A stretch of DNA of 63,201 nucleotides, the filler included, from Mycoplasmatota bacterium (GTDB lineage Bacteria > Bacillota_I > Bacilli_A > RF39 > UBA660), in assembly GCA_012727915.1 (NCBI GenBank). It is 5 parts of 5 records of this genome, joined end to end, with 100 filler letters (N's around TTAATTAATTAA, not from the genome) between each part and the next. Parts side by side here need not be neighbours in the genome. Positions count along the whole stretch, not along the records: positions 1 to 26,547 come from JAAYGD010000004.1; 4 more parts are not named here. One strand, written 5' to 3'. The position numbers were made by a program, and so were the translations under genes. The notes beneath the pieces are model-generated. The model was not told the origin of the DNA and ran no database searches. It saw only the letters and a program-made list of their open reading frames with translations. Positions 6,302-26,547 of this stretch are shown piece by piece. Positions within the stretch are counted from its first letter, which is position 1; each line of letters begins with the position of its first letter.

Positions 6302-7378
6302 TTAATTTTTTTCTTCTTCATTATCTAACTTATTAACTTCTACTCTATTAATAGATTCAAATTTATTTGATATTTTTTCTGTAGTTACATGAACATCCTT
6401 AACATCTCTAGATACCTTATCTATACTCTTAGAAAGATCATCCCATCTTTCTCTATATCTTCCAAATTCAAGACTTAGTGCATTTAATTCTTTTTGAATA
6501 ATCAAAGCATATTTATCTCTCTCAATATTATGTATTACTGTTTGAACAACTGTTAGCATTGACATTAATGTTGTCGGAGATGTTAACCAAATTCTTTTCT
6601 TATAAGCATAATCAACAATATCTTGATGATAAGCATATAGTTCTGCGAACAAAGCTTCCGCTGGTAAAAACATAAAAGCTTGATCAGAAGTAACATTAGT
6701 TATTATATATTTACTAGCAATATCATCAATATGTTTTTTTACGTCTATTTTAAATTTTTTCTCATAATTATCTCTTTCTATTTTACTTATATTTTTATCT
6801 ACCATATTTTGATAATTTTCTAAAGGGAATTTTGAATCGATTGCTATAAGTCCTAAAGGTTCAGGAGCATATATTACTGCATCCGCTAAAGTTCCGTTTT
6901 CAAATTTATGTTGTAATTCATATATTTTTAAATTATTCTCACCAAATATACTTGATAAAATATGCTTTAAAGTTACTTCTCCAAAAGTACCTCTACTTTT
7001 TTTATCAGTCAATATTCCTTGTAAAGATACTATATCAGTAGACAATGAATCAATTTTCTTTTGTGCCTCATCAATTTTTGTCAATCTTTCTACTATTGAA
7101 GTAAAGGTTTTATTTGTTTTTTCAAAATTTAAATCCAATCTTTCAGTTACTTTGTTATTTATAAGATTTAATCTGTCTTCAATTTTTCTATTTAAACCCT
7201 CAAAATCTTGAAATAATGTTCTTGTAAAATCACTTTTAAAATCACCAATTTCCTTAGTTATATTTGTTTCTAATTTTCCTAATCTTTCAGTAATATTTCC
7301 TTCACTAATATTCTTAAACAAAGATATAGTTACTAATATTACTAATAAAACTAATAATCCTATAATTATATATTCCAT
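6302..7378 (-). CDS. rmuC: DNA recombination protein RmuC
   Basis: N-terminal TM, coiled coil, KSRGTFGE, IDSKFPLENY, FMFLPAE, TSPTTL. Confidence 0.92.
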   Translation of the reverse strand: MEYIIIGLLVLLVILVTISLFKNISEGNITERLGKLETNITKEIGDFKSDFTRTLFQDFEGLNRKIEDRLNLINNKVTERLDLNFEKTNKTFTSIVERLTKIDEAQKKIDSLSTDIVSLQGILTDKKSRGTFGEVTLKHILSSIFGENNLKIYELQHKFENGTLADAVIYAPEPLGLIAIDSKFPLENYQNMVDKNISKIERDNYEKKFKIDVKKHIDDIASKYIITNVTSDQAFMFLPAEALFAELYAYHQDIVDYAYKKRIWLTSPTTLMSMLTVVQTVIHNIERDKYALIIQKELNALSLEFGRYRERWDDLSKSIDKVSRDVKDVHVTTEKISNKFESINRVEVNKLDNEEEKN

Positions 7379-7379
7379 A

Positions 7380-7955
7380 TTAATTCTCCTTTATTTTATT
7401 TTTTAATATTAAAGAAACTAAATAAGTTAATAATACTATTAAACACATTTGTATTAATTTCCAAATATCTCCACTACTAGTTATTACTGTTTTCCCAACA
7501 TAACTCCAAAAGAATATAATAGAAGGTTTAGAAATTAATACTGCTGGTATAAACTTCTTTGGGCTCATATTAGATAAGCCTGATGAAATGTTAATTGCAA
7601 AAGCAGGAGTAAATGGTAATGCCATTAATACAACTAATGCTGGAAATGAAACCTTTTTAATATAAGTTAATGTATCTCTAACTTTACTATCGTTTTTCAT
7701 ATCTCTATCCCATCTTTGACCGAACCCTTTTTTAAATGAATAAAATGATAATAAACAACCCAAACAAGTCGCAAACCAATTAATTATAAATCCTAAAATA
7801 GGACCAAAAGCAATAGCGTTAAATGATAAGAATACTGCTAAAGGTAATATTGGGAACACTGATTCTAATATAATAATAAATACACCAAATAAAGGGCCCA
7901 ATTCCTTTAAATTATTTATAAAAAAGTCTACTATTTGACCAAATATTTCTTGCAT
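7380..7955 (-). CDS. TVP38/DedA (VTT domain) membrane protein
   Basis: ILESVFPILPL and PFTPAFAINISSGLS motifs. Confidence 0.85.
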   Translation of the reverse strand: MQEIFGQIVDFFINNLKELGPLFGVFIIILESVFPILPLAVFLSFNAIAFGPILGFIINWFATCLGCLLSFYSFKKGFGQRWDRDMKNDSKVRDTLTYIKKVSFPALVVLMALPFTPAFAINISSGLSNMSPKKFIPAVLISKPSIIFFWSYVGKTVITSSGDIWKLIQMCLIVLLTYLVSLILKNKIKEN

Positions 7956-7962
7956 ATATCTC

Positions 7963-9285
7963 CTAATTTGCTATAACATAAGGATTAACTTGTGAACCGG
8001 TTCCTCCTGTTATTATTACATTTTTTCTTAAAGTAACAACTGGTCTTACACCTAAACTCGATGAAGCTGCAACATTATATATTGTTCCTGATACGCTTAA
8101 ACCGTGATTTACCCAAGAATAAGTCCCCGTTGCTATCAATGTTCTAGTACTTTGATCAGTATAAATATAATTTTGATTTCTACATTGATATTGCCCTCTT
8201 GCTGTACAAGTAGATTCTGTAGATGCATTTAAGAACTCTTCTGGATATAACAATCTCATATATTTATCCTTTAAAGGAAATACTGATTTTCCTCCTGTTT
8301 TTCCAATAACATCACAAGAATCTTTAACATACGAACTAGTTAAGTAATCTGCTCTATTTAAACCTATTACTGTCCCATACTTATTTAGACAAATATCAAT
8401 TTTCTCTAACATTTTACTATAAGTCATTATAGTTGTTTTTTCATATCCTGTATCTCCAAACAATCTGTTATACATAAAACTGAATTGTCTATACTCTGCA
8501 GGGGAATATGCGGGAAGAGGAGCATTTTCAAGCAAATCTGAATATCCATAATTAGTTGCTGGTTGACTATAATAAATACTTGCTGGAGTATTGTGTACAT
8601 TATCAAATACAGATGAAAAAGCAGATCTATCTCTTACAATAGTAATTGTTTCATCTTCATTAATACTCACTATTCTATAACATGAATTAGTTGAAGAAGC
8701 ACAATTTATATTGCTTGTATCCCATGGCGCTATTAAATAATTATTAGGTTGAGTTCCACTATTTGTATCAGTTAAGTAACCATCAGAAGTTGCTAAACCT
8801 ACTGAGTTAGTCTTTGTAATTCCACCTCTAAAAATATATTTGTTATCCCATTTATACAAACCATTTCCAGCATATTTATTTATTGATATATCCTTACCAG
8901 CTACAGTAGCCAATAAAGTATTTTTTAAATAAGTTGGACTTGAGGCAGTATTAACTAATTCATAAACTAAAGCATCGTTATTTGCAGTATCAATTTTAGA
9001 ATAAACATAACCCGTAATTGGATTATCAGTTATAGGATCTTTTATTGGACATTTCAAATAATTTTTGCATAATGTAGTCATTAACATTGGTTCTGCTAAA
9101 CCAATATTATAATCTGATGCATATATTTCAGCAGCAGTTGTAATCATATTAACTACTTCTTCCTTAGACTTTTCCTTTGAAGAATCAAGTAAATCTGAAA
9201 TTGAAGGAATAGAAATAACAACTATAATAGAAACTAAAACAAGAACTACTAATATTTCAATTAATGTAAATCCTTTTTTATTCAT
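7963..9285 (-). CDS. Type IV prepilin-like protein with large Cys-containing C-terminal domain (minor pilin/adhesin)
   Basis: Class III signal KKG|FTLIE plus hydrophobic helix; C-terminus GVRPVVTL...ITGGTGSQVNPYVI. Confidence 0.85.
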   Translation of the reverse strand: MNKKGFTLIEILVVLVLVSIIVVISIPSISDLLDSSKEKSKEEVVNMITTAAEIYASDYNIGLAEPMLMTTLCKNYLKCPIKDPITDNPITGYVYSKIDTANNDALVYELVNTASSPTYLKNTLLATVAGKDISINKYAGNGLYKWDNKYIFRGGITKTNSVGLATSDGYLTDTNSGTQPNNYLIAPWDTSNINCASSTNSCYRIVSINEDETITIVRDRSAFSSVFDNVHNTPASIYYSQPATNYGYSDLLENAPLPAYSPAEYRQFSFMYNRLFGDTGYEKTTIMTYSKMLEKIDICLNKYGTVIGLNRADYLTSSYVKDSCDVIGKTGGKSVFPLKDKYMRLLYPEEFLNASTESTCTARGQYQCRNQNYIYTDQSTRTLIATGTYSWVNHGLSVSGTIYNVAASSSLGVRPVVTLRKNVIITGGTGSQVNPYVIAN

Positions 9286-9293
9286 ATTATCTC

Positions 9294-9629
9294 CTATTCT
9301 TCATATCTATATGATAATTCATTATTAGCATTTAAATAACTTGTTACATAACCAGCCATTGCCACATTGTCTATAGGATCTATTATTGGGCATTGAAGAT
9401 ATGAATTTTCACATAAAGTTGATACAGTAACGTTAGATCCTAAAGTTAAATTATTATTAACAAAATAAAGTTTTCCAGAATTAACAATTAATTCTACTAA
9501 CTTTTCTTTTTCTTTGATTTTATTTTCCTCTCTTGTAGAAATAAAACTTGGAATAGCAATAGCTAATATTATTCCAAGCAACGCTATTATAGATATTACC
9601 TCTATCATTGTAAAAGCTTTATTATTCAT
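9294..9629 (-). CDS. Small type IV prepilin (ComGC-like size)
   Basis: NKA|FTMIE signal, hydrophobic helix ending IAIP, TLCENSYLQCPIIDP. Confidence 0.85.
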   Translation of the reverse strand: MNNKAFTMIEVISIIALLGIILAIAIPSFISTREENKIKEKEKLVELIVNSGKLYFVNNNLTLGSNVTVSTLCENSYLQCPIIDPIDNVAMAGYVTSYLNANNELSYRYEE

Positions 9630-9708
9630 ATAATCACCTACTATATATTATTATATAATTATTAGGTGATAAAATCAAACAATAAATAAAAAGAATAATG
9701 AATAATCA

Positions 9709-11916
9709 TTATTCTTTATCTGAAAAGAAATCATCGAAAAATTGATCGTCACTATTGTCTTCTTCTTTAATTGATTTTATAACATCATCTATATTAGTAT
9801 TTATTTTTAATTCTTCAGTTACAGGTTCTTCCTTAACTATTAATTCTTCTTCTTTCGATTCTTCTTTAACAAATAATTCTTCCTCTTTAGGTTGTTCTTT
9901 AATAATCAACTCTGCTTCTTTTGGTTCTTCCTTAATTGTTAATTCCTCTGTAATTGGTTTATCTTCCTTTTTCTCTTGTTCTTCTTCAGCTTCTAATTCC
10001 GCTATTTTAGCATCTATTTTTTTAATTAGTTCATCAATGTCAAAGGAAGAATTCTCTGGTTCATTTGAATTTATACCATGAACTGGAGGCCTTTCTCCAA
10101 GATAAGGATTATTTTTAAAAATATCTTCTGGCATTCTATCTTTAATTCCAAAATCCATAGGTCTTGGAGCTTTATACATATCTTGTGCTCCTAACATTTT
10201 CTTTTGTCTTGATTCATCTACAAAATCTTTTAAGTTAAAGTATTCTATTTCTCTTTTAACTCTTTCTGGAAATTTTCCTTCTGAATAATTTGGCATATTC
10301 CAATTTATTTCGGAAGCAAATTTTAAAGAAGTCTTAAATGGAGAATTTCTATGCTTTAAAATAATAGCATCTTTAAATTTTAATCTTTGAAGTTCCGCTA
10401 CTGTTATTAACGGCCTTACTTCTTCTTTATCCTTAGTTTTAATCTTTCTTTCGCCTGCCAATTTACTTATTTCTTCTAATGACTTTAATTCGCTACTCAA
10501 CAAATATATAGTGTTTGCGCAGTTTCCTTTTATTGTTTCTGCTTCTTCTGCACCATATACTTGATTTAATTGTGCAAAGTTTTGAATAATTAAATTGAAT
10601 CTAATTTGTCTAGATCTAGCAGCTGTAATCATAGTAGTAACATCTTTAAGAGCTGGTAAGTTTGCAAATTCATCTAATATAAAATTAGTTCTAACTTTTA
10701 ATTTTCCATCAGGATTATTTTGAGCTACATCTATTAAGCTTTCATAACATTGTTTAATAAATATAGTTGCTAAAGCATGATATGTTTTCTTTTCATCTTG
10801 AATTACCAAAAAAACTGCAGTCTTTTTTCTTCCTATATCCATAATATCAAAATCACTATAAGATAACATCTCAGATAAATTCTCAGCCATCGCAAATATA
10901 TTAACCTTTTGTCTAAATACCGAAATTATTCCTCCTTGAGTTTCATTAGGAGCATTAACAGTACCAGATGCATTAATATAAGCAGAATTTTTTTCATCTT
11001 TTGAAGAAAAATATTCTTTCATATATGTTCCAGAACCCAATCTTTTTTCTCCAACAGTAAGCATTAATATAATTGAATTTAAATTAATTTGATTAATATC
11101 TTTTACATCTTGAAATAATCCTTGAGCCAAACCAGTAAAGAAGTCTGCAGCAGTATTTTGCCAAAAAGGATCATCTGTTTTTTCATCACTTAATATATTA
11201 ATTGCTAAATCTCTAAGCAATTCATTACTTTTATCACTATTGCCTGATTTATATAAATCATATGGAAGTGTAAGAGGATTCCATGCGTTTCCTTTTTGAG
11301 GTTCTCTAAAGTTTAACACAACAATATTATAATTCTTTGCCTTTAAATATTCATAATTCTTTCTATATATTTCACCTTTAGGATCGGTAATAATCATAGA
11401 CTCACCATGTTTTGCTAATATATTTACTAAAGGTTGAACCATACAAGATGTTTTACCAGAACCAGTAGCTCCAACTATTAACGAATGTGACTCTCCGTCA
11501 TCTACCCATAATTCATCTTCTTTTACTATTAAAGGTACTCCTCCTCCAGAATATGATTCACTAGAAGGATTTACACTTTTCATTCCAATAGCACTTTTTA
11601 TCTCTTTTTCTTTTGCCCAAGTTTCATAGCCATCATTTTTTTTATCTATTTTCTTAAAGCCTAAACCTTTTTCTCTTTCAAAAAAATGAGAAGTTACTGA
11701 TATTGCTACTAAAACTATACCCGCTATAAAAAAAGTTATCGTATAAACAATATATTCTGGAAAAAAAGCTTCAATAGGATTAAATCCATAAAATATAGCA
11801 TACTTAGAAAAATAAGACAAATTTAAAACTCCTATTGCAACAACATATAAGAACAATAGTGCTCCAAGAACATATTTTATTATATCTTTTTCTGTAGCTT
11901 TAAATTTAAATTTCAT
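9709..11916 (-). CDS. virD4: VirD4/TraG-family type IV coupling protein with long acidic tail
   Basis: Two N-terminal TMs; Walker A GATGSGKT; ITDPKGE; DPFW; Walker B FILDEFANL; ARSRQIRFNLIIQNFAQL. Confidence 0.93.
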   Translation of the reverse strand: MKFKFKATEKDIIKYVLGALLFLYVVAIGVLNLSYFSKYAIFYGFNPIEAFFPEYIVYTITFFIAGIVLVAISVTSHFFEREKGLGFKKIDKKNDGYETWAKEKEIKSAIGMKSVNPSSESYSGGGVPLIVKEDELWVDDGESHSLIVGATGSGKTSCMVQPLVNILAKHGESMIITDPKGEIYRKNYEYLKAKNYNIVVLNFREPQKGNAWNPLTLPYDLYKSGNSDKSNELLRDLAINILSDEKTDDPFWQNTAADFFTGLAQGLFQDVKDINQINLNSIILMLTVGEKRLGSGTYMKEYFSSKDEKNSAYINASGTVNAPNETQGGIISVFRQKVNIFAMAENLSEMLSYSDFDIMDIGRKKTAVFLVIQDEKKTYHALATIFIKQCYESLIDVAQNNPDGKLKVRTNFILDEFANLPALKDVTTMITAARSRQIRFNLIIQNFAQLNQVYGAEEAETIKGNCANTIYLLSSELKSLEEISKLAGERKIKTKDKEEVRPLITVAELQRLKFKDAIILKHRNSPFKTSLKFASEINWNMPNYSEGKFPERVKREIEYFNLKDFVDESRQKKMLGAQDMYKAPRPMDFGIKDRMPEDIFKNNPYLGERPPVHGINSNEPENSSFDIDELIKKIDAKIAELEAEEEQEKKEDKPITEELTIKEEPKEAELIIKEQPKEEELFVKEESKEEELIVKEEPVTEELKINTNIDDVIKSIKEEDNSDDQFFDDFFSDKE
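9802..9951 (-). repeat. In-frame 33-nt (11-aa) tandem repeat, ~4.5 copies, in the VirD4 tail
   Basis: TEELTIKEEPK/EAELIIKEQPK/EEELFVKEESK/EEELIVKEEPV/TEELKI. Confidence 0.85.
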
Positions 11917-11924
11917 AATTCCCC

Positions 11925-12611
11925 TTATAATCTATATTTGTTTGCTCTATATACTTTAATTCCCACAAATGAAAGTATTGATAAAATTGATACTCCTATT
12001 ATAATCCATAAATATGATTTTGTCTTTACTTTTGTTTCATATTCTTCTACAACATTATCACCATCTTTATTAAATATTATTTCAATATTTCTAGACTCTT
12101 TTAAAGGAGAATGAAACCAATAATAAGTGTTAGATTTTTCATCATAACTTAAGGCATTATGTCTAATTACCTCAAATGGCAATGAAATACTAATAGAATA
12201 ATTCACAATATTACCATCACCATAAAATTCGTTTTCTATTGAAGAAGCAGTTAAAGAACAAGTTGAATCATTACACTTCGTAATAAAGTTTTCGTATTTT
12301 CCTTCTAAAAATACTGGGGTACTAAAATTAGAAAAAGAAGTTATTCTTTTTAAAGTGTAATTAATATTATTGTCTACAGTATTATCTATTATTTTATAAT
12401 TATATTTTTCTGCGTCTCTCTTAACACTATTTTTTAAATTAATAAAGTCATCTTCAGTCATTACTGCAGATGTGCCTTCAAAAGACATATTATCATAGCG
12501 AAAATTTATACTTTCAGTAATATTTAAACTCTCATCAATATTAAAACTGTAATAAATATTACATCCAGATAAAGTAATTATACAAAATAATATAATAAAT
12601 AATTTTTTCAT
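11925..12611 (-). CDS. Lipoprotein with C-terminal TM anchor (LppM-like architecture)
   Basis: Lipobox LSG|C; SISLPFEVIRHNA...YYW; C-terminal hydrophobic helix followed by basic residues. Confidence 0.65.
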   Translation of the reverse strand: MKKLFIILFCIITLSGCNIYYSFNIDESLNITESINFRYDNMSFEGTSAVMTEDDFINLKNSVKRDAEKYNYKIIDNTVDNNINYTLKRITSFSNFSTPVFLEGKYENFITKCNDSTCSLTASSIENEFYGDGNIVNYSISISLPFEVIRHNALSYDEKSNTYYWFHSPLKESRNIEIIFNKDGDNVVEEYETKVKTKSYLWIIIGVSILSILSFVGIKVYRANKYRL

Positions 12612-12619
12612 TATTTCAC

Positions 12620-15600
12620 CTACTTATAAGTTGCAAAAGAATTCAATTCTTTCCAGTAACTATCTGAAGCTCTTTTAGCGTCTACTCTTACACCACCACC
12701 GCCAGAATGAATAATATACAAATCGTCTCCAGCGTCTCCAATTCCATTTTGATTTTTATCTTCAAATCCCATATATATCATAACATGTCTAGAATTTCCA
12801 GAATAATTATATGCATCCCCAGCTTTTCCAGCAGACGAATTACATAAAATATCTCCAGGAGTCAATAAAGGAAGAACGCTATCTCCAAAATTTTTAAATT
12901 CCGGAATGCTTTCAAATTGAAAAGATCTAGTATATTCGGTTTCTGAATTACACACTGCACCCATTACAGGGAAAGTTTGGTTATCGAACACTTGAAATGT
13001 TTGGTTCAATACCCAATTAACATAACCATCACAATCAAGACCAGCCACTCCCGCATTAAAACTTCCGCCAGTATCATCATAAGATACAAATAATAATCTT
13101 TCTTCATAAGAGTTAGCTAATCTAGCATAATCTTCCTCCATTTGATTTTCATAGTACGGAACCCCATTAAAAGTATATTCATGCAGTTCACCCCACTTTG
13201 GATTAAATCCTTCTTTATACCATGATCTAGCCCATTCTGAACATCTAATTGCAGAATAACTATATTTAAAAGCATGTTTACCAATCATACCTGCATCAGG
13301 TCCGCTTTTTTTAATATCAACACATTCCGGATCATTTTCAATGTCACAAGCTCCACAATATCTTACTTTTCCAAACAAAGAAGAGGCATACGCTAAAACC
13401 CTTTTTCCAGCATAAGTAGGAGCGTGATCTGTATACCATTTTGCTTTTGAATAATAATTTTTTAAATTGGTTTTGCATTGTCCTACATTCTCATAAACAA
13501 TACAATCTGCCCATCCTGGAATTTCAATGATTAAACATTCTTTTAAATAATTATCAATTGTTGATGATAAATCATCTCTATAGTTTAAATATTTTCTTGT
13601 TATTTCAGCAACATAATTACTATCGTTTTCAAACCTATTATTCATATCACTTGAAGGCAAATGAGAATATAGAGCTTTTAATACAATTGACACTCCCTGA
13701 TCGATAGAAATGCTGCTTCCATTTAAAGTGGGACCATTTTCACTATCTATAGTTGTCATAATTTCATTGATTTGAGAATTATTCATCTCAGCATATTTAA
13801 ATATTGCATCAATTAATTCATAATTATTTGCGCTTAATGTTTCAAACATATCTTTTGAACTTCTAAATTCAAATTGAGCAAACAAACTTAGAGGAATAAG
13901 ATTAAATCCCACTTTGACACTATCATATGCAGATTTGTCCATTTCACCAATGATTTCAACCAAAGATTTTCTTCCAAAATAATTATAATTTATATCAGCA
14001 AAAGATGATATTCCATATTCAGTTGAAATAGTCATTGTATCAAAATTTATTTTATCAGCATATTTACTATAAGCACCTTTTTTATTTTCAAATATTGACC
14101 TAAAGTAATTTAAATCAAAGTCTATTTTCATTAATCCAAAACCACCATATTTGGAATTTTCATAGTCTGCAATAGCTCTCATTAAATTAAAACTTTTTTT
14201 AGATTTAAAGGAATAAAATGCCAAACCACCATTTAATGTACAACTACCAACAGGATGCTTTTCAGTTGATTCACAAATATAATCGTAGTTTTCCGCACCC
14301 GTAAATAAATTCTCAGGATTGATAAACTCTTTTTGACCTCCAACTATTTTATATAAACCAAAATGTAAATGAGGTCCTGTTGATTTTCCCGTTGTACCCA
14401 TTATTCCAATCGGATCTCCCATAGATACATGCATTCCTGCAGATACCATAGGAAGCTCTTTAAAGTGATGATACGTACTATAATATGTTTCGCCACTTAT
14501 AGTATGTTGAATTGTAACTGTATTCCCCGCAACTTCCTGAAATCCAGCAATAGTAACAACCCCATCATAAACTGCATAAATGGTTTTATCTTGTTTTGCA
14601 ACAACATCTATTCCATTATGAAACTTGTAAGGTGTAGTAGCTCTTTCACTCTCAAAAGGATTAATTCTCAATCCAAATTTTGATGTAATTGAAAAAGTGC
14701 CCTCTATAGGTCTTCTTAAAAAAGACAATACTTCACCAGGTATTCCTCCAGGAACATAACACTCATCTATCTCTTCTTCTTCATCATATAGATGTCTCCA
14801 TATTTCATAATATGCCATTATGTCTTCAATTATAGGATCTACAACTCCTATTTCCTCAAATAATTCTGGGAACAATAAAGCAACCAGATTTTCTCCATTG
14901 GTTCCTATTTCAGAATTTTTTAATCTAAATGCATATCCTTCTTCATCATATTCAGTTGAATAAAAATATATATATCTATCTTCCTCATCAATATTTAAAT
15001 CACTTTCCAAATCAGAACATGATCTTCCTTCTTTGCTTTCATCAATTTTTGTTACATATTCCGAAGAAATGAACACAGTATTATAAGTAATATTTCCATC
15101 AGAACCGACTTTAGGATTACATCTATATTTAGCTACTTTAATTGATTCCAAATGATTAAATACTTCCTCTACATATTCTGATCTTAAACTTAGTTTTTCA
15201 TCAGTTATTTCTTCTACCAATATAGTTTTACCATCGCCTAAATCGAGTAAAACCTTATTCTCTTCCAATTCCTCTTCAGAACCATCAAAATACAAAGTTG
15301 CTGCGACTAAAGGAATGTTTGTAACTCCATATTTTGCTTTAAATTGATTACTTTTATCTAAAATCATTTCAAAAAGTGCTTGTTCATTAGTTGCGAATTT
15401 ACCATACAAAAGCAAATTTTTTGTTTTTTCAGAAAAAGTTTGCGCAAAGTTAGCTGTTGCAACTGCTGCAGTATTAACCCCTCCTACTATAAGTGAAATT
15501 CCTTCAACCATTTTCATCATAGCACCCACAATTAAAACTATTGTCAAAATAAATGCAATTGCACCAGATGCAATCATAAATATTTTCTTTTTATTTTTTT

Positions 15601-18305: not shown

Positions 18306-18600
18306 AAAATCCCCATCCTCTCCATAAATATTTTCGTTGATTTGTAAAAAAACGATACATTGATATTAAAAACGATATTACATTATGATAATTTGGTATT
18401 GGCATTACTAACAAAGCTGTAAATAATGCTGGTAGCAGAACAATTATTGTAGTTAATATTGAATCAGTTCCTATAATTAATAACAATAAGAATGATCCCA
18501 TTATTCCAAAACCAAATATTACTAAATCTATTGGAGTAAACATATTAAATATAAGTTGTCCTTTTTTAGTATTTGCTGGTATTAAATATAATCCTTTCAC
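18277..18600 (-). CDS. PrgI/VirB3-like small membrane protein
   Basis: YLIPAN...IFNMFT, two TM helices, basic ..RKYLW tail; position between VirB6-like and VirB4 genes. Confidence 0.7.
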   Translation of the reverse strand: MKGLYLIPANTKKGQLIFNMFTPIDLVIFGFGIMGSFLLLLIIGTDSILTTIIVLLPALFTALLVMPIPNYHNVISFLISMYRFFTNQRKYLWRGWGFYEFTKEQPK

Positions 18601-18625: not shown

Positions 18626-20626
18626 TTATTTTAAAGCTTTTCCTTGTTTAATTCTAGCATCTAAAGCAGCATCCTCTGAGAAATTTGGATCTTTCGATAA
18701 AGCCTCAACTTGAGATGTAATTCCTTTAATAGTTGCATCCAAATCTTGCAATTGGAAAGATACATCCAAAGATTCTTGTTGTTCTCTCGTAAATTCTGCA
18801 GATTTGTGCCCCAATCTTGTATTTAAAGAATCTATCATAGTAGTATAATTTGCAATTTCCGCTGCAGAAGCACCTCTCGCTGTTGCCGTACTTCTATCGA
18901 TTTCTAATTTAGTTATTTGATCATTTAAAGAGTTAATTTCTTGAGATATCATTGCTGTATTACTTTGAGACATAGCTTGTTTTTGACCCAATACTATAGA
19001 TTTAAATTGATTATCAAGCACAAGGTTTTTCTTTTTAGCATATGTTTCTGAATACATTTTTGAATTTGCAAATTTCTTTGCTTGAGTTTCTTTATATTCG
19101 TCCGCCAATTCTCTTTGGCCACTTGCAACATATGAATTATATGTAGCATCTCCTGCATAACTTGCTTGAAATCCATTTACTAAATCTGTATATTCAGCTT
19201 CTCTTTCAACTGATTGAGAATCCATTCTATCAAATCCTTTCTTCTTTTGAACATTTTCATTAATTTGCTTATCTAATTGACCTCTACGTTGCTTATAAGC
19301 TAACTTATCTGAAGTATGTCTTGCTTGAAGAACCCCACCTTTAGCGCCCGCTTGAGCACCACCACTTCCAGCAGCCTTTAAATCACCAAATATTTCTTTT
19401 CTTTTATCATTAAATTGTCTAAATTTTCCTGGTGTCCAACTTGGATCATCTTGTAATTTCTTTTCATCGTGCTTTCTCATAGCATAACCACCAACCATAC
19501 CAGCAGCAGCAGCCCCTACACCTATTCCAGCTCCGACAATTCCACTTATTGCTTTTCCATCTTCACTTGGTTTGTATCCTAATAATTCTTCTAAGAATTT
19601 TGGAGCGGTTTGCATAAACGCTATTATTGCTAACATTATAAATATTACCTCAAATACTCCTATATCAGAACTTAAACCAGCATCTGCATAATTTTCTAAT
19701 TTTAAATCCACTATTAAATTTGTCATCAAAAACAATATTGAAAGCCTAATAAATAAAGATATATATACTTTTATTGCGGTACTAGACCATCTAGCAAAAA
19801 TTCCTTTTGATGCTGAAGCAGGGTCTAAATATGAAATAATTGCGATTGGAGAAATTATTTCTATTATTAATAGTTTTATAGACCTTAATGCTATCTCAAT
19901 CGTCATTTTAATAAAAGATATTAATAACATTACACCTACAATTGTGGAAATAATAGACATATAATATAGTCTATATTCTGTACCAAATAATCCTCCTGTA
20001 TGGCTTGTTATTGCGCCTTTATTTGATAATGCTTTAATACCATTTTGTTTTAATTGATCTAACGCAGTTGAAGTTTCTTCATCAAGCTCAACATCTGGAT
20101 TCTTTCCAACAAAAATTGCAAACATCCCTCTTGCAATTACATCTCCTTCGTTTTCTCCAACTACTACCCCTGTTCCTGTATCTAAAAATATTCTTTTTAA
20201 AATACCATTATTACCATCTGTTCCTTTTATTACCAACTCTTGAATACCATATGCCATATCAAAAACTGTTGGCATAATTACAACTAATATTACAGTAACG
20301 ATTGCATGTGTAAATATTTTACTTAATCCTTTTTGTTTATCACTTACCATATCAGGATTTGCAATCATAGTAATAATTGAAAACGCCAATTTAAAAAACA
20401 TTGCAAGCGCTAAAAACACATAAATATTTCCTGCTACTTTACTTGCTATTCCACCCGTATCAAAACCCGAATCAAAAAAACCACTTAAATCAACTAAATT
20501 CATTGCAACTTTATAAACCGGACCTAATAAACCATAAATGATGCCATCAATGAATAAAAATAGATTTCTTAATAAATCGCTAATAATCGGTAATCTAAAA
20601 GAAAAAACATCTAACAAAGCACTCAT
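18626..20626 (-). CDS. VirB6/TrbL-like polytopic T4SS channel protein with long C-terminal coiled-coil extension
   Basis: Multiple TMs in the first ~380 aa with RSIKLLIIEIISPIAIISYLDP...FARW; Gly/Ala-rich segment; helical C-terminal tail. Confidence 0.75.
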   Translation of the reverse strand: MSALLDVFSFRLPIISDLLRNLFLFIDGIIYGLLGPVYKVAMNLVDLSGFFDSGFDTGGIASKVAGNIYVFLALAMFFKLAFSIITMIANPDMVSDKQKGLSKIFTHAIVTVILVVIMPTVFDMAYGIQELVIKGTDGNNGILKRIFLDTGTGVVVGENEGDVIARGMFAIFVGKNPDVELDEETSTALDQLKQNGIKALSNKGAITSHTGGLFGTEYRLYYMSIISTIVGVMLLISFIKMTIEIALRSIKLLIIEIISPIAIISYLDPASASKGIFARWSSTAIKVYISLFIRLSILFLMTNLIVDLKLENYADAGLSSDIGVFEVIFIMLAIIAFMQTAPKFLEELLGYKPSEDGKAISGIVGAGIGVGAAAAGMVGGYAMRKHDEKKLQDDPSWTPGKFRQFNDKRKEIFGDLKAAGSGGAQAGAKGGVLQARHTSDKLAYKQRRGQLDKQINENVQKKKGFDRMDSQSVEREAEYTDLVNGFQASYAGDATYNSYVASGQRELADEYKETQAKKFANSKMYSETYAKKKNLVLDNQFKSIVLGQKQAMSQSNTAMISQEINSLNDQITKLEIDRSTATARGASAAEIANYTTMIDSLNTRLGHKSAEFTREQQESLDVSFQLQDLDATIKGITSQVEALSKDPNFSEDAALDARIKQGKALK

Positions 20627-20691
20627 ATAGCATTATCACCTATCTTCATATAATATATATTAATTATAACATATTATTAAAAATATAATAA

Positions 20692-20720
20692 AAAAAAACA
20701 ATTTATTAAATTGTTTTTTT
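20692..20720 (-). terminator. Intrinsic terminator after the VirB2-like gene
   Basis: Inverted repeat AAAAAAACAAT-TTATTAA-ATTGTTTTTTT with a long T-tract on the minus strand. Confidence 0.6.
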
Positions 20721-20721
20721 A

Positions 20722-21057
20722 TTAATCATCAGTTTCACTATCTGGAACTTTTGTTTCTTCTTGATAACCCGCCTTATCATTCCAGCATTCTCTCCATTGA
20801 TCTCCACCTACAACACCAGTTAATAATCTTACAACTATAATTAATAAGAATACTCCCACTGCTGCAGCAGCTCTTTTCCCCAACATAGAAGTTGCAGCTT
20901 TTATAGCCTTTTCATCTCCTGAAGAAACAGCTTTAAGCAAATCAACAGATCCAATTACAAGTAATACAATCGGAACCGCTATCAGAATTACATTATATGC
21001 TATTTTTACATACTTAATTATCTCTTCGAAATGTTCATTAACACAAACTAATATCAT
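20722..21057 (-). CDS. VirB2/TrbC-like (T4SS pilin-like) two-helix membrane protein
   Basis: Two hydrophobic helices joined by a charged loop (SSGDEKAIKAA..MLGKR); directly upstream of the VirB6-like gene. Confidence 0.65.
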   Translation of the reverse strand: MILVCVNEHFEEIIKYVKIAYNVILIAVPIVLLVIGSVDLLKAVSSGDEKAIKAATSMLGKRAAAAVGVFLLIIVVRLLTGVVGGDQWRECWNDKAGYQEETKVPDSETDD

Positions 21058-21114
21058 ATTGTTCTCCTTTCACTATAATTTAATAATACTTTATTAAATA
21101 TACTTTGTCAATAT

Positions 21115-22092
21115 TTATGATTTGAAAAAACCCATCATTTGTTGTTTATCTTCTTTATTTACTTGTTTAGTAAAGCCTAATCTCGCAAGCAAACTATCCA
21201 AGTTTCTACTAAACATCCTATCATTTAAAGGGGGTATACTATAATAAACCTTTGTTTTAGCTTCATACTCAAAGTCTGATACATCTTTAGTATCTAACAA
21301 ACTTTTATTTAAAACAATCTTTTTTCCACCAAGTTTATCAAATATGTCACCTTGTCGTCTAATTAATTTGTTTAATTTAATTGTAGATGGTTCTAATAAA
21401 TATAGCACATCATTGCATACTCCTTCATCACCACTTACATTTAAATCTACTAGTAAAATATCATACATAGGACTTAACCTTACTATTTCATCAAATAAAT
21501 CAGCGTTTGTTGTAGAATACATATCTTTATCATTATAATAAATAAAATCTGTTCTATCTACTTCTAATGCCGCTACTTTATAATTTAATGTAAGTTGTTT
21601 TTTCAACATATATATTAATGATGTTGCTCCAGCATGAGAAGTTAAATTTTTAAATCCTAATACTTTTACATTTTTTTCTATTACTTTATTAGTAACTTCC
21701 TTAGTTAAATTATCAATTTGATGAATATGTGCTACATCTTTATAAGTATTAGTATGATTCATCAAATACTCAATACCTTCTTTATTCTTAGTGAAATTAT
21801 ATATTCCAATAGATATTAATTTAGATAAAAACAAAGAAGATGCAGCTTGGGGAGTATCATCCAATAAGAATATAATTTTACTCATATCCATATTTGAAGA
21901 TAATACTTGTAAATTTTTAAGATCAGAATAATTCTTAATAGCAGTTATATCTAAAATCATTTTGTTATAAAAAAAATTGGAGAACATTTTTATTAATTCA
22001 TTGGCTTCAAATTCTCCATTTACTTTTTTTATTATTTCAACATTTAATGAATTTAGTTTATCGTCTAACAAATTTGCAACTACTATGTTCAT
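21115..22092 (-). CDS. TadZ/CpaE-like protein (receiver-like N-terminus, degenerate MinD/ParA-type P-loop domain)
   Basis: VLGFKNLTSHAGATSL, VAALEVD, YDILLVDLN and IVLNK follow MinD-fold motif order; tad gene context. Confidence 0.6.
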   Translation of the reverse strand: MNIVVANLLDDKLNSLNVEIIKKVNGEFEANELIKMFSNFFYNKMILDITAIKNYSDLKNLQVLSSNMDMSKIIFLLDDTPQAASSLFLSKLISIGIYNFTKNKEGIEYLMNHTNTYKDVAHIHQIDNLTKEVTNKVIEKNVKVLGFKNLTSHAGATSLIYMLKKQLTLNYKVAALEVDRTDFIYYNDKDMYSTTNADLFDEIVRLSPMYDILLVDLNVSGDEGVCNDVLYLLEPSTIKLNKLIRRQGDIFDKLGGKKIVLNKSLLDTKDVSDFEYEAKTKVYYSIPPLNDRMFSRNLDSLLARLGFTKQVNKEDKQQMMGFFKS

Positions 22093-22102
22093 GGTTCACC
22101 TT

Positions 22103-22513
22103 CTATAAATCTTTTAAATTAAATATTATATTTGTTTCTCCTGTTACTGGAGCACTTAAAAACTCTCCTATAACGGGCATATTGAAAGACATATAAGTTG
22201 TAACTCTATAATATTCACCTCGATCGGTAACCATTCTTTCAACACAATAACCATGAGAGGTGTTCAAACATTGTCCCAAAGCTTTAGATCGAGTACTATA
22301 TTGTCCACCATAATATTTAACTTCAGCTAAATATGTATCGATTTTTTCTTTTGCATTATCCCAACCTTCAAATTGTTCTAATAAACTAATAATTTGATTT
22401 TTGTGCCTAAAAGTGATTGCATAATTAAGACCAATAGCCATAATGCTAATATAAATAGATATAAATATTAATATTAATTTAAATAATAACGTACTACCTA
22501 TGGCCTCTTTCAA
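22103..22513 (-). CDS. TadE-like pseudopilin/minor pilin
   Basis: TTG start with GAGGTG RBS; MKEAIG + hydrophobic helix, Cys pair, YYRVTTYMSFNMPVIG C-terminal strand pattern. Confidence 0.6.
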   Translation of the reverse strand: MKEAIGSTLLFKLILIFISIYISIMAIGLNYAITFRHKNQIISLLEQFEGWDNAKEKIDTYLAEVKYYGGQYSTRSKALGQCLNTSHGYCVERMVTDRGEYYRVTTYMSFNMPVIGEFLSAPVTGETNIIFNLKDL

Positions 22514-22558
22514 TATGCATCACCTCACAATATTTTAAAATACATTATATAATAGAAA

Positions 22559-22723
22559 TTATTTATAAGTTCCTGGGGTAGTATCTTGTGTTGTTGTTGG
22601 GTCCCAAACTTCTCCGGCTTCTTCTTTCTTATCATTGAAAAAAATCCAAAAAAATGCAAGCACTGCACCTATAGCAATTATTGTTATGATAGTTAATGTA
22701 GTTTCTCCTGTTGCTGCCTTCAT
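22559..22723 (-). CDS. 54-aa Flp-like pilin candidate (missing from ORF track)
   Basis: Manual translation MKAATGETTLTIITIIAIGAVLAFFWIFFNDKKEEAGEVWDPTTTQDTTPGTYK; strong RBS AGAAAGGAGG at 22731-22740; follows tadC. Confidence 0.75.
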   Translation of the reverse strand: MKAATGETTLTIITIIAIGAVLAFFWIFFNDKKEEAGEVWDPTTTQDTTPGTYK

Positions 22724-22808
22724 TAATATCCCTCCTTTCTATCATATAATTTGATTGTATAATATTTATTTCTTTTTTACAAGTTAAGTTATCTTTTATT
22801 TACACTAT

Positions 22809-23591
22809 TTAGATTGCAAAATTAGTCATCATTGCAAATAACAATACCGCCATTACTCCTAAACCTACGACAGTAAGCATAATCATACTCTTATTTTCCA
22901 TCTTATCTAATCTTTCTTTATAACGAGTACTTCTTGCTTTATTTTGTAAAGATGAAACACTTTTTGAAAACATAATTAATTGTTCATGCTTATCATCTTG
23001 AGATCCCAAACTAAGTCTATATAGTAATCTCATCATTCTAACAGAATCAGATACTGGATACATTTTTGCAAAATCCATATATGGCTCCACAGTTGAATTA
23101 CCAGCATTAATCTTCGCTATCAATTCTTTTAATCCTGGTTTAAACACTTCAGGAGCACTATCAATAGATCTTGAAATTGCAACTGGTATTGTATAATGTT
23201 GAGATAATATTTCTAAGCTTTTTAAAAAATATGGTAATTGTAAATCAATCATATGTAGATGTCTTTTATAAAAAGATTTTACTGAAGAATAGCCTTGTTT
23301 AAATATTAAATATCCTAAAACAAAAGACGCTAATATATTAATAAAATTCATATTATTTAAGAATAAGAAAATAAACACTACAATCGTAACAATTCCATTT
23401 CTAATTCTTTTACTATATTCAGCATTAACATCAACATCATCACCATATTTTGATTTCAAAAAGAATTCATAATCATCTTCCATCATACCTCTAAAGTATT
23501 CTTGATTATCATCAATAAATTTCTTTGAATCAATTAATCTGTGACTTTGAAATATAAATAATACTATTACTCCTATTAAAATAAACTCCAT
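22809..23591 (-). CDS. TadC-like pilus platform membrane protein
   Basis: TM pair, then IDLQLPYFLKSLEILSQ..IPVAI (T2SS-F-like), C-terminal TM; second platform gene after TadA. Confidence 0.7.
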   Translation of the reverse strand: MEFILIGVIVLFIFQSHRLIDSKKFIDDNQEYFRGMMEDDYEFFLKSKYGDDVDVNAEYSKRIRNGIVTIVVFIFLFLNNMNFINILASFVLGYLIFKQGYSSVKSFYKRHLHMIDLQLPYFLKSLEILSQHYTIPVAISRSIDSAPEVFKPGLKELIAKINAGNSTVEPYMDFAKMYPVSDSVRMMRLLYRLSLGSQDDKHEQLIMFSKSVSSLQNKARSTRYKERLDKMENKSMIMLTVVGLGVMAVLLFAMMTNFAI

Positions 23592-24487
23592 TATTCAGCC
23601 CCCACATTCTCATTATAATATTTCTCTCCACTTAACAAGAAATAACTATTTGTAAGAACTATTAAATGTAATATTAAATTAATTTTTATATCATCCAATA
23701 AATCTATGTATGCATCCACTCCCAATAAATATTGAACTAACATTACCATGAAATATAAAGCTACACCCAACTTAAGAAATGATTTTTGGAATGATTTTCT
23801 ATCTATTCTATCTCTATAAACGGCTTCTACTAAGCTATCTATATCTATTAACATAGCATCTAAAGTTTCAGTACTATCTAATGAACCTTCTTTAGTAATT
23901 TGTAAAAACAATTGATGCATATTCTTTATCATATAATAATCATATTTAGTATTCATATAAGAAATAGATTCATCTATTGATCCGTTCTCATAAGATAAAT
24001 CAATCATATGTTTTACATCAGATAATAATGGATCTTCTAATATTCCAGAAGCATATACTCCTTCTAATGACTTAACAAAAGATTGAGTTACTGAAAACTC
24101 CATTATAGTATTTGTTGTATAAACTTGAATTTGTTCAAATAAATATTCACTATATAATCTTTTATATCTCAAGAACGCTAAATAAGGAACAATTACCATA
24201 GCAAGTATTACATATATTGTTGATATTATAATGCTATAAAAATATAGGTAAGATATTACCGCAGCTCCTCCTCCAAACATAATCATTTGAGAAATATACT
24301 CTTTAGTAGAATATTCTAATCCTAATGCTTTAACCTTTTCACTTATCTTTTTATAAGAATAAGGACTAATCCTTTCATATAAATCTTTTGTTTGTTGAAT
24401 TATAAATTTATATGAATTTTCACTAGTACTTTGTCTATAAAACAATATGAAAAGCGCTAATAACATTAATACAACTAGTACCCACAT
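23591..24487 (-). CDS. TadB-like pilus platform membrane protein
   Basis: TadB-like TM topology; directly downstream of the TadA ATPase. Confidence 0.7.
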   Translation of the reverse strand: MWVLVVLMLLALFILFYRQSTSENSYKFIIQQTKDLYERISPYSYKKISEKVKALGLEYSTKEYISQMIMFGGGAAVISYLYFYSIIISTIYVILAMVIVPYLAFLRYKRLYSEYLFEQIQVYTTNTIMEFSVTQSFVKSLEGVYASGILEDPLLSDVKHMIDLSYENGSIDESISYMNTKYDYYMIKNMHQLFLQITKEGSLDSTETLDAMLIDIDSLVEAVYRDRIDRKSFQKSFLKLGVALYFMVMLVQYLLGVDAYIDLLDDIKINLILHLIVLTNSYFLLSGEKYYNENVGAE

Positions 24488-24501
24488 ATAACACCTACTT
24501 T

Positions 24502-25566
24502 CTAAAGAACTTCTTCTATATTAAAAATATTATTTTTTATAGTTACTCCTTGTGCAGACAAATATCCAATTAAATACTTAGTTGGATTAGATAAAAATAC
24601 TTGTCCATTCATTGCTTTTCTATATATTGTATTGTGTTTTGCTATATTATTTTCATCAACATAAAATTCACATACTTCACATACTTCACGAATAAACCTC
24701 TTTGTTTCTTTATCTTGATAACCTCTAATATGTACTCCTAATTGAACATATCTATGTATAGACTTTAAAAATTGCTCAATATCAATATTAGATTCAAGCA
24801 AACTATACATACGAGATGGAATACTTTCAGCTTTATCAGAGTGAATAGTAGATAATATGTTATGTCCAGATGAAATAGAGTTTCTTACTGCCATAACAGC
24901 TTCTGCAGTACGAACCTCTGATAATAAGATCCATCTAGGATTTTGTCTCATACAAGTTACTAATACTTCACTATAAGATGCAATATTATTTGTTTTCATT
25001 GCAACTATATCTCTTTGAGGAAATATCTTATCTAAATGTAATTCCAATGTATCCTCTATTGTTATTAGTTTTTCATCTTCTTTAGTATGAGAAGCTAAAT
25101 ACTTTAAAAACTCAGTTTTACCAGAACCAGTTTCTCCACTAATTAAAATATTACAATGTCCTTCTACACATCTAATTAAAAAATCATGTATCTCTTCTGT
25201 TATATATTTTTCTTCTAATATCTTATCTTTTTTCAACCTTATCTTTGCGGGAGTTTTACGCATTAACATTGCTATACCATTTTTAGCAATAGAATCATGA
25301 ATAAAGTTCAAACGTAATTCAGCACTCTCAGCATCCAAAAACGGATGGGCCATATTAAATGTTTTACCCATCATATTTGAACATTGAAAAGCAAGTTTTT
25401 CTATTATAGCGTTAGTAACATCTTGAACTTCTGCCCTATATACTCCTTTAGATAAAGATTTTAACCACAACTGACCATTGTTTGTGTATGAAACATCAGT
25501 TATATCATCATCATTTAAAAATCTTGCTAAAGGGCCGAAATCAACATTATTGAACATATTGTCCAT
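24502..25566 (-). CDS. tadA: TadA/CpaF (VirB11-family) ATPase
   Basis: DDDITDV, NILISGETGSGKT, ITIEDTLEL, MRQNPRWILLSEVRTAEA, SGH..LSTIH. Confidence 0.9.
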   Translation of the reverse strand: MDNMFNNVDFGPLARFLNDDDITDVSYTNNGQLWLKSLSKGVYRAEVQDVTNAIIEKLAFQCSNMMGKTFNMAHPFLDAESAELRLNFIHDSIAKNGIAMLMRKTPAKIRLKKDKILEEKYITEEIHDFLIRCVEGHCNILISGETGSGKTEFLKYLASHTKEDEKLITIEDTLELHLDKIFPQRDIVAMKTNNIASYSEVLVTCMRQNPRWILLSEVRTAEAVMAVRNSISSGHNILSTIHSDKAESIPSRMYSLLESNIDIEQFLKSIHRYVQLGVHIRGYQDKETKRFIREVCEVCEFYVDENNIAKHNTIYRKAMNGQVFLSNPTKYLIGYLSAQGVTIKNNIFNIEEVL

Positions 25567-25591
25567 AAATTCATCCCCTTTTTATTATTTA

Positions 25592-26419
25592 TTATTGCTC
25601 TTCAGGTATTACATCAGGCAATTGATCTTCAGTAATCAAACCAGTATTTATTTCTAAAAATAATTTTAATTCTTGATTCGATATTATTGGAGTTAAATTC
25701 TCTTTATTTCCACTCTTATAAGATTGAGTAGTAGGTACAGGAACTAACTCAGCAGCTATAGTTCTAACATTTTGCAAATACAATGCTTTTCTTAACAATA
25801 AATGAATATCTTCAGGAACCGCAAACAACAATATACTAGGTCTTCTAGTTTGTTCACTATTCTCAAATACATGTTCTCCACTATTATCTTTAACTGCAAG
25901 TATCTTAACATTTTCAACTAATTTTCCATAAATAACTTTTCCATCTGGATCTAAAGCTTTTAAATAAATATCAATAAAATTGTCAGGAAACATTGAATTA
26001 CCATAAGTTAAATCAACATCTACTGGTAAATTAAATGCAGTAAATCCATCTCTAATATTAATAAATGCAGAATCTGGCAATCTACTTTCAGTTATTATAT
26101 TATCCTCATAAAACATACTTCCAAATGGGATATATGCATTATAATTAGACCATTTTCCCACAATTAAATTAGGATTCTTAATTACTTTTCCTTTAACCAT
26201 TGCTGGTGGAACTTGCGCAATTCCTATCATATCTTCAGTTATTTTTGTTCTTGGTTGAATAGAAACCTTAGCATAAGGTATATCTACCGGTTGAATAGCT
26301 TGATTTACTCTATAATTATATCCAAAAAATATAATAAGTACTCCAAGTACTACTCCTAAAATAGTTACTGTATTCTTATTTTGAAAAAACTTCTTTAATT
26401 TAAAACCTAAATTTCCCAT
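25592..26419 (-). CDS. CpaB/RcpC-like SAF-domain Tad assembly protein
   Basis: N-terminal TM; SAF-like YAKVSIQPRTKITEDMI; GNSMFPDNFIDIY and LVENVKILAVKD. Confidence 0.8.
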   Translation of the reverse strand: MGNLGFKLKKFFQNKNTVTILGVVLGVLIIFFGYNYRVNQAIQPVDIPYAKVSIQPRTKITEDMIGIAQVPPAMVKGKVIKNPNLIVGKWSNYNAYIPFGSMFYEDNIITESRLPDSAFINIRDGFTAFNLPVDVDLTYGNSMFPDNFIDIYLKALDPDGKVIYGKLVENVKILAVKDNSGEHVFENSEQTRRPSILLFAVPEDIHLLLRKALYLQNVRTIAAELVPVPTTQSYKSGNKENLTPIISNQELKLFLEINTGLITEDQLPDVIPEEQ

Positions 26420-26508
26420 CTTTATTCTCCTTCTATACTATTATGTAATAATATTATCATAAATATATAAAACTTTCCATATCTTTTTACACTTATTGAT
26501 AAAAATAA

Positions 26509-26532
26509 AAGAATCAATTAATATTGATTCTT
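26509..26532 (-). terminator. Hairpin terminator upstream of the tad operon
   Basis: AAGAATCAAT-TAAT-ATTGATTCTT inverted repeat with adjacent T-rich tract on the minus strand. Confidence 0.6.
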
Positions 26533-26547
26533 AATTATTATTTTTTA

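Follow-up and report, generated by a model that had tools for sequence, protein, structure and literature searches.

Which task does a type IV secretion system (T4SS) fulfil in a small bacterial chromosome if no relaxase accompanies it? The question is raised by a locus of a Mycoplasmatota bacterium of the family UBA660, order RF39 (assembly GCA_012727915.1). The window, i.e., the whole stretch of 63,201 nucleotides analysed, consists of five contigs (C19, C22, C25, C28 and C32) joined by N spacers. Its positions 1-26547 are the entire contig C19 (JAAYGD010000004.1) of the genome G000 (873 kb in 76 contigs, 93.8 % complete); genes past 26547, e.g., an rpoB-like gene, belong to other contigs and are not neighbours of the locus. 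We show that the ancestor of UBA660 and one sister order fixed in the chromosome the Tad and T4SS module of an element of the pLS20/pBMB67 type, and that this machine is intact, core, relaxase-less and under selection. As to its task, the model put forward for Patescibacteria, in which proteins are delivered to a host cell on contact, has here in our estimate about an even chance of being correct.

Organisation of the locus

The 19 genes in 6302-26419 are all intact open frames on the minus strand and read as a module for a Tad pilus and, after it, a Gram-positive T4SS. They are listed in their order on this strand, flanking genes and a hairpin last, with matches to Pfam, NCBIfam or family hidden Markov models (HMM), the predicted local distance difference test (pLDDT) of structure models and ratios of nonsynonymous to synonymous substitution rates (dN/dS).

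25592..26419, minus: cpaB, CpaB/RcpC of the Tad type (PF16976, E=0.0017; TIGR03177, E=4e-10, below cut-off)
24502..25566, minus: tadA, TadA/CpaF (VirB11-like) ATPase (PF00437, E=3e-27; Walker A pattern in 19 of 20 homologs)
23591..24487, minus: tadB, TadB-like platform protein (family HMM matches the pBMB67 gene after tadA, E=1e-13; no Pfam match; position)
22809..23591, minus: tadC, TadC-like platform protein (family HMM matches genes of pBMB67, pLS20 and the G032 element; no Pfam match; position)
22559..22723, minus: flp, Flp-like small pilin of 54 aa (conserved family of 30; HMM matches, on the zrk4 plasmid, the gene that comes after T2SS-F, E=9e-6)
22103..22513, minus: tadE, TadE-like pseudopilin (conserved family of 46; HMM matches pLS20 gene 40, E=6e-5; position and shape)
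21115..22092, minus: tadZ-like, TadZ/CpaE-like protein of 325 aa with a Rossmann domain and a degenerate P-loop domain (model pLDDT 87; Foldseek matches)
20722..21057, minus: VirB2-like T4SS pilin, one of four G000 paralogs (family HMM; no PF18895 match of its own)
18626..20626, minus: virB6, VirB6/TrbL, fast evolving (PF19597, E=3e-10; dN/dS 0.15-0.51)
18277..18600, minus: prgI, PrgI/VirB3-like (PF12648, E=6e-4; HMM matches pBMB67 PrgI)
17751..18305, minus: trsD-like, separate N-terminal part of VirB4, 184 aa (matches positions 96-280 of NF045975)
15970..17754, minus: virB4, VirB4 ATPase (PF19044; Walker motifs; dN/dS 0.015-0.04)
12620..15943, minus: wall hydrolase in the VirB1 slot, here M23 (PF01551, E=7e-24)
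11925..12611, minus: lipoprotein with LppM-like fold (model pLDDT 89; fold match 2nc8)
9709..11916, minus: virD4, VirD4 coupling protein with acidic linker and DDxFFDDFF tail (PF02534, E=5e-54; above the NF045973 cut-off)
9294..9629, minus: type IV (N-methyl) pilin-like protein (PF07963; ComG-type models below cut-off)
7963..9285, minus: large type IV (N-methyl) pilin-like protein (PF07963, E=7e-7; homologs often among VirB2 paralogs)
7380..7955, minus: tvp38, TVP38/VTT membrane protein, chromosomal flank (PF09335)
6302..7378, minus: rmuC, RmuC, chromosomal flank (PF02646, E=8e-57)
26509..26532, minus: hairpin directly preceding the cpaB leader, probably the terminator of contig C2's last gene (a 53-nt stretch folds at -11.2 kcal/mol, without shuffle control)

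Genes for VirB4, the type IV coupling protein (T4CP), VirB3, VirB6 and a VirB1-like protein are thus clustered at one locus (Pfam, NCBIfam and family HMMs), presenting the core set of MPF_FATA conjugative elements. The Walker B pattern was observed in all 79 VirB4 proteins, Walker A in 76 together with three close variants. CpaB, TadA, TadB, TadC, Flp pilin, TadE and TadZ, the Tad (type IVc) set, also share one cluster. CpaB and TadA were named by family models near or below cut-off; the names tadB, tadC, flp and tadE come from position and HMM matches to plasmid genes, without Pfam support. Foldseek matches of the TadZ-like protein are SIMIBI P-loop proteins, including ParA (3ea0) and the two-domain structure 3fkq, which we take to be TadZ. 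Pfam revealed no prepilin peptidase within the locus; the rest of the genome was not searched for it. Neither Pfam nor NCBIfam matched a VirB8-like subunit among the locus proteins, and the only candidate folded was LppM-like. On the other side of the locus, a small ferredoxin gene (window 3069-3305, plus strand) lies between rluB and a gene for 244 aa.

The contig ends shortly before cpaB, and the initial annotation had allowed for mobility genes beyond this end. The 3' end of contig C2 overlaps the cpaB end of C19 by exactly 127 nt, a stretch present in no other contig, and the relative G001 is collinear across the join with 88-93 % identity; no mobility gene was found there, which removes this limit. 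Upstream of cpaB, C2 carries genes for proteins of 266, 446, 1173 (DUF5411 at its start) and 526 aa, including large secreted or surface proteins, then a SpoU methylase (trmL-like) and DUF6568. DUF5411 homologs precede cpaB also in G291, G053, G056, G075, G037 and G264, and the pLS20 gene preceding the motor ATPase matches DUF5411 (E=1.4e-5), thus the machine probably starts on C2. The inverted repeat reported at 26509-26532 is present and follows the stop of the last C2 gene. The gaps of a few nucleotides described from the N-methyl pilins into tvp38-rmuC are real (8, 7 and 1 nt), yet 79 nt separate virD4 from these pilins.

Prevalence and gene order

VirB4 was detected in six of six congeners, in 23 of 24 family genomes and, among UBA660 genomes of at least 90 % completeness, in 285 of 299: 284 matches had E<1e-149, and one genome had only a distant match of the ICE type (integrative and conjugative elements). 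The distribution is not the patchy one that would speak against domestication. VirD4 was present in 114 and TadB in 101 of 119 family genomes. In three genomes VirB4 is missing although VirD4 is present, which hints at gaps in the assemblies, while G104, G110, G126 and G139 lack VirB4, VirD4 and TadB. A survey across the Bacilli (399 scored genomes, two more unscored) found a close VirB4 in 49 of 50 family genomes, in G030, the one genome of its order, and in G037, and in none of 344 genomes of 27 other families. G030 retains the neighbourhood tvp38-rmuC-uppP-asnS. For G025, from the other family of the order RF39 and 90 % complete, no VirB4, VirD4 or TadB was found. G037 belongs to another order and has an RF39-type locus on its contig C76 with housekeeping neighbours such as asnS; its two order-mates, one of them a congener, are without it. 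This contig may be mis-binned or reflect descent rather than the transfer of an element.

Gene order was counted in the best 80 of 555 VirB4 matches plus the window. Among the 54 loci with 10 kb upstream of virB4, trsD was present in 54, virB6 in 53, a pilin gene in 51 and a Tad gene in 35; among the 45 loci with 9 kb downstream, 39 had virD4 and 21 rmuC or tvp38. In 24 of these 45 loci (e.g., L086:2007-2294), though not in G000, virD4 is followed by a gene for a single-domain rhodanese. The operon survives splitting by housekeeping genes: about 30 kb of them lie between virB4 and hydrolase-lipoprotein-virD4 in G015, and the Tad genes of G264 are about 620 kb from virB4, beside what are apparently, and we assume, ftsA-ftsZ.

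Descent and selection

The VirB4 tree, whose comparison with a ribosomal-protein tree was suggested in the initial annotation, was compared with that of RpoB and RpoC for 35 genomes picked for long contigs, and the trees were mostly congruent. VirB4 and RpoB+RpoC had 19 of 32 splits in common, compared to 21 for RpoB and RpoC, 19 for length-matched slices and a mean of 0.15 for shuffled labels. Against vertical descent count the lower patristic correlation of VirB4 within the family (0.73 versus 0.84-0.93) and a conflict with RpoBC in 2 of 16 strong VirB4 splits; furthermore, slices of RpoB and RpoC reject the VirB4 tree (delta logL 219-251) more strongly than each other's (84-111). The strict approximately unbiased test is not decisive: the RpoBC topology is rejected by VirB4, but slices of RpoB and of RpoC also reject each other's topologies. 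Inheritance is vertical for the most part; some discord is seen around G037, G050 and G117.

The ATPases of T4SS and Tad pilus are as constrained as RpoB. Between G000 and G001, dN/dS was 0.015 for virB4, 0.036 for virD4, 0.034 for tadA and 0.029 for rpoB at similar dS, and the synonymous distances of the locus match those of rpoBC. The genes for VirB6, hydrolase and lipoprotein had higher ratios, 0.11-0.15 versus G001 and 0.28-0.51 versus G002 and G003. Codon adaptation and GC content at third positions of the 11 locus genes of scoreable length were within the 5-95 % range of the genome. No obvious compositional break had been seen by eye in the initial annotation; a mild rise exists, with a GC content of 28.4 %, close to the 95th percentile among 125 windows of 8 kb, versus 25.2 % in the genome and 25.0 % in the flank. 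As to att sites, no direct repeat of at least 16 nt is common to both flanks (14-mers: 6, versus 3.2 in shuffles), and the window contains no tRNA. Prevalence, synteny with housekeeping genes, tree congruence near the RpoB-RpoC level, purifying selection and the missing relaxase together support the domestication and vertical inheritance first proposed from the single locus; domestication is nearly certain.

Relaxases and the transfer of DNA

Pfam revealed no relaxase, integrase, Rep or exclusion gene among the 19 genes, as had been claimed, and for 17 of them (7963-26419) NCBIfam had no such family either. Models for MOBT, MOBP, MOBQ, MOBL, MOBC, MOBF and MOBH were silent in five of five genomes (G000, G001, G002 and the single-contig genomes G264 and G291), with the MOBC control silent as well; including MOBV, all eight families gave no match in G000, G001 and G002. 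For G000 the negative result covers seven Pfam families with working controls in a genome 93.8 % complete, with MOBM outside the set. A scan for the HUH motif marked 2 of 940 open reading frames of G000 (on C64 and C72) and caught four of five control relaxases. As queries, the relaxases of pLS20 and pBMB67 matched only each other among 175 loci and G000, and that of the zrk4 plasmid matched nothing in G000 or the 175 other loci. Tyrosine recombinases of G000 are encoded on C27, C28, C41 and C52, none on C19 or C2, and a serine-recombinase query found only a fragment on C63. In G000, neither relaxase nor integrase adjoins the locus.

The main rival to protein delivery, rather unlikely in our judgement, is that the machine still moves DNA, either as a host-controlled mating channel for chromosomal DNA among kin without a known relaxase or in the service of in-trans relaxases of mobilisable elements. 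VirD4 is almost universal; its Walker A is intact in most copies, and it scores above the cut-off for a conjugal coupling-protein family. MOBV relaxases were found in 107 of 201 genomes across the order and MOBP in 16 of 101, while second, ICE-type VirB4 matches are uncommon. In both single-contig genomes checked (G264 and G291), an element with serine recombinase and MOBV lies 12-13 kb from virB4; elsewhere, among the matches listed, MOBV and virB4 on one contig are 28-71 kb apart (G008, G159, G175, G072 and G211). Divergent relaxases can also escape detection, as MOB-suite missed the relaxase of the zrk4 plasmid. Against this, VirD4 is strongly constrained in genomes without the tested relaxase families (G000, G001 and G002), and the two nearby MOBV proteins are 25 % alike, lie on opposite sides of the locus and have no match in 110 other loci. 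A joint profile of the three cognate plasmid relaxases reached a best E of 0.11 over 5221 six-frame segments of G000. Conservation at the level of RpoB is not explained by patchy passengers.

Origin and comparison with known systems

The nearest known systems appear to be plasmids of the pLS20/pBMB67 type. The plasmids pBMB67, pLS20 and zrk4 (CP074574) each join a Tad-like motor module to the T4SS core found in RF39 and to a MobL/MobP3 relaxase. They share with the RF39 locus DUF5411, the TadA/'VirB11' motor, TadB/C-like genes, VirB6-PrgI-TrsD-VirB4 and VirD4. Unlike it, they carry a relaxase and are mobile, their VirD4 is without the DDxFFDDFF tail, and their VirB4 is only 23-30 % identical; for the best 20 of 2,558 records, identity of plasmid VirB4 is at most 30 %. 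In the available text of PMC8557374, the motor of the pLS20 family is called VirB11, and no VirB2 is reported in the family. The pLS20 genes 36-40 (L175:9446-12971) read as DUF5411, TadA, TadC-like and TadE-like, i.e., a Tad-type module and not a lone VirB11. The zrk4 plasmid was typed as non-mobilisable by MOB-suite, yet it has a MobP3-like relaxase gene beside virD4 (L182:5987-7717). It also carries two T4SS_pilin-like genes, a kind present in RF39 loci too, for which reason VirB2-like pilins were rejected as a mark of non-conjugative function. For pBMB67, no pilin homolog could be shown (hhalign probability 0.15 %).

In a VirB4 tree of 129 proteins (library fragments <540 aa and proteins >1000 aa excluded), RF39-type sequences form one clade with support 1.0, together with two further proteins, P0002 (44 % identity) and P0003 (39 %), which may mark further lineages with the machine. 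The sister clade includes ICE-type proteins of the Erysipelotrichales (Thomasclavelia, Solobacterium, Erysipelotrichaceae), the nearest named neighbours at no more than 34 % identity. Since the tree is midpoint-rooted, a donor is suggested, not shown. Naming covered 20 of 150 library matches and gave names for six clusters; in this tree without an identified Patescibacteria VirB4, the sister clade may point to an origin separate from the Patescibacteria T4SS. The best NCBIfam family for VirB4 and for the 184-aa TrsD-like protein is that of a Mycoplasma ICE (Mbov_0397 family), with a VirB4 score of 343 at a cut-off of 590. The nearest ICE-type locus inspected, an apparently mobile Tad and VirB6-VirB4 element of another Bacilli family (G032 C17, L107-L108), has ArdC and primase genes as in mobile elements, unlike the RF39 locus.

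The T4SS of Patescibacteria, as described in PMC12102498 and PMC10633639, derives from MPF_FATA and is likewise chromosomal, lineage-wide and relaxase-less; VirB4 was reported for 2,417 of 3,035 genomes and relaxases for 103 (PMC12102498). Further shared traits are arrays of PF18895 VirB2-like pilins, VirB6, PrgI, TrsD and VirB4, a wall hydrolase downstream, and a small genome lacking fatty-acid or nucleotide synthesis with ComEC and type IV pili alongside the T4SS. In contrast, RF39 kept VirD4, usually linked, whereas 148 of 5,713 T4CP homologs of Patescibacteria are near virB4; the LppM-fold lipoprotein is another difference. A Tad module is attached in RF39, whereas the pili of TM7x are described as similar to type IVa pili, for which reason a parallel between the Tad module and the second pilus of Saccharibacteria was rejected.

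Variable surface parts and the VirD4 tail

In the hydrolase slot, catalytic domains were swapped between relatives: among 50 proteins, SpoIID occurred in 22, M23 in 19, CHAP in 8 and two lysozyme families in 5 and 4. Several divergent VirB2-like pilins, a trait of the Patescibacteria T4SS, were found with up to seven paralogs per genome. PF18895 matched 19 of 36 aligned homologs, not including the copy at 20722..21057, and 33 of 41 genomes at E<=0.001 (18 above cut-off), none of these matches in G000. The family HMM found four VirB2-like pilins in G000, on C19, C41, C46 and C56. Two long paralogs (C46:1-1084 and C56:169-1149) have an identical 73-residue pilin domain and different N-termini, which suggests domain shuffling or gene conversion. 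A second cluster on C41 (L102:13783-19642), between presumed ftsX-like and cdaA-like genes, encodes a VirB2-like pilin, a 1464-aa surface protein with immunoglobulin domains and an LppM-like lipoprotein; it may supply alternative surface parts.

The best fold match of the locus lipoprotein among 48,161 chains was LppM of M. tuberculosis (2nc8; Z 11.9, root-mean-square deviation 3.4, 148 residues aligned; next match Z 7.4), and the Pfam LppM model matched only 2 of 45 homologs. According to PMC5217060, which cites the finding as unpublished, LppM binds phosphatidylinositol mannosides. Lipid handling by the modelled lipoprotein is a lead only.

The C-terminus of VirD4 is DDxFFDDFF in 47 of 49 homologs of at least 600 aa, preceded by an acidic linker of 33-192 residues in 29 measurable homologs; no other G000 protein ends in this motif. 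The conserved tail implies a conserved partner. TraD of the F plasmid binds the relaxosome protein TraM with an acidic, Phe-ended tail, thus the tail of VirD4 alone does not decide between protein and DNA as cargo.

Proposed protein delivery to a host cell

If the machine delivers proteins, the Tad pilus and the VirB2-like pilins would bind a neighbouring cell, probably another bacterium, and the wall hydrolase would open the wall locally. VirB4 would power the channel, and VirD4 would recruit protein substrates via a conserved cytoplasmic partner docking on its tail. The purpose would be to subdue or to tap the target for lipids and nucleotides which RF39 cells cannot make. FabB/F was absent from five of five genomes, two of them single-contig (control 14 of 14), and PurD from 24 of 24 family genomes including G000; RF39 bacteria are described as widespread in human gut metagenomes, uncultivated and without fatty-acid synthesis (PMC6784871), and the genus CAG-460 has been placed in the family UBA660 of this order (PMC13155120). 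In Southlakia epibionticum, a relaxase-less T4SS with pilins was reported as essential for epibiotic growth (PMC10633639). The effector delivery or host-dependent lifestyle proposed in the initial annotation fits the missing fatty-acid and purine genes and the Patescibacteria precedent.

Several observations weigh against it. Neither a protein substrate nor a target cell emerged from the analysis, nor did evidence of expression: the one sequencing run with part of the locus (share 0.08) was rejected, as its contigs, labelled FAIRE-seq, may hold DNA, and three other runs yielded nothing. VirD4 stands beside virB4 in 39 of 45 loci, whereas the S. epibionticum system is described as lacking a recognisable coupling protein. 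The VirB2-like pilins, Tad genes and DUF5411 already occur on relaxase-bearing plasmids and are therefore not marks of a new function, and both single-contig relatives have a MOBV element near virB4. In several genera, all sampled members retain VirB4 but have no TadB, which makes the pilus separable from the channel. The hydrolase may act on the peptidoglycan that RF39 itself possesses (PMC10868615); uptake of exogenous fatty acids could explain the auxotrophy without contact (PMC6784871); and G025 is without PurD although none of VirB4, VirD4 and TadB was found in it.

Other possible functions

The same anatomy would suit a contact weapon or an adhesion and secretion device of a free-living scavenger, which would not depend on an obligate host but kill or adhere to neighbours, biofilm, protists or gut epithelium; we regard this as unlikely. 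The fast-evolving surface parts and the large secreted proteins upstream of cpaB fit such a device, and RF39 cells were reported to express their own metabolism in chicken caeca (PMC13155120). The Gram-positive VirB/VirD4 core of the Streptococcus suis 89K island is reported to secrete a protease, yet it belongs to an accessory pathogenicity island, not to a family-wide core, and no Tad module is described in the available text (PMC12857230). No toxin-immunity pair was recognised among the annotated locus genes, a genome-wide search not being made, and the retention of a single copy in nearly all of these genomes of about 0.6-1.6 Mb would suggest an essential function rather than an accessory weapon.

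An import channel that feeds DNA or nucleotides to a purine auxotroph is improbable. The lack of PurD and the frequent proximity of RmuC to the locus are in its favour, but ComEC and a separate PilB-type ATPase, present in five of five genomes, give DNA uptake its own machine, and VirD4-class proteins are export coupling proteins in known members. A recently integrated or decaying ICE with its mobility genes off the contig, to which the raised GC content and the locus of G037 missing from its congener might point, is hardly credible and is refuted by the prevalence of 95 %, tree congruence, synonymous distances and the trmL and surface genes at the C2 join, the housekeeping neighbours in G037 fitting mis-binning or descent better.

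In the same genome, C17 (L106:1-6259) encodes a protein of 2086 aa or more, unexpected in 873 kb, whose domains are of the GH94 and glucoamylase types and which we take to resemble a cyclic beta-1,2-glucan synthase.

Significance for the order RF39

We found no paper joining RF39 or UBA660 to VirB4 or a T4SS in a literature search with supplementary gene tables and most subscription journals outside its scope. The available texts of PMC7301438, PMC10868615, PMC6784871, PMC13155120 and PMC12306168 make no mention of a secretion system in RF39, and 'RF39' is absent from PMC12102498 and PMC12857230, papers on T4SSs of Patescibacteria and Gram-positive bacteria. As described in the latter, functions of Gram-positive T4SSs are nearly all limited to DNA transfer, with the Patescibacteria system, essential for survival, as the exception. 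A second lineage-wide case, one that keeps its coupling protein, would show a conjugation machine turned into a housekeeping organelle.

More tentatively, and on balance doubtfully, RF39/UBA660 bacteria, common in the guts of humans and animals, might be obligate epibionts of other bacteria, i.e., a second, independent origin of a Patescibacteria-like life within the Bacilli by domestication of a Tad and T4SS plasmid machine. VirD4 would have been rewired via its tail for effector export, and the LppM-fold lipoprotein may handle host lipids. The near-universal contact machine is a testable reason why RF39 bacteria are uncultivated, and the route to cultivation would be via a host cell, not a richer medium. 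These small-genome bacteria of guts and digesters may make their living on other cells, to which they attach and which they exploit.

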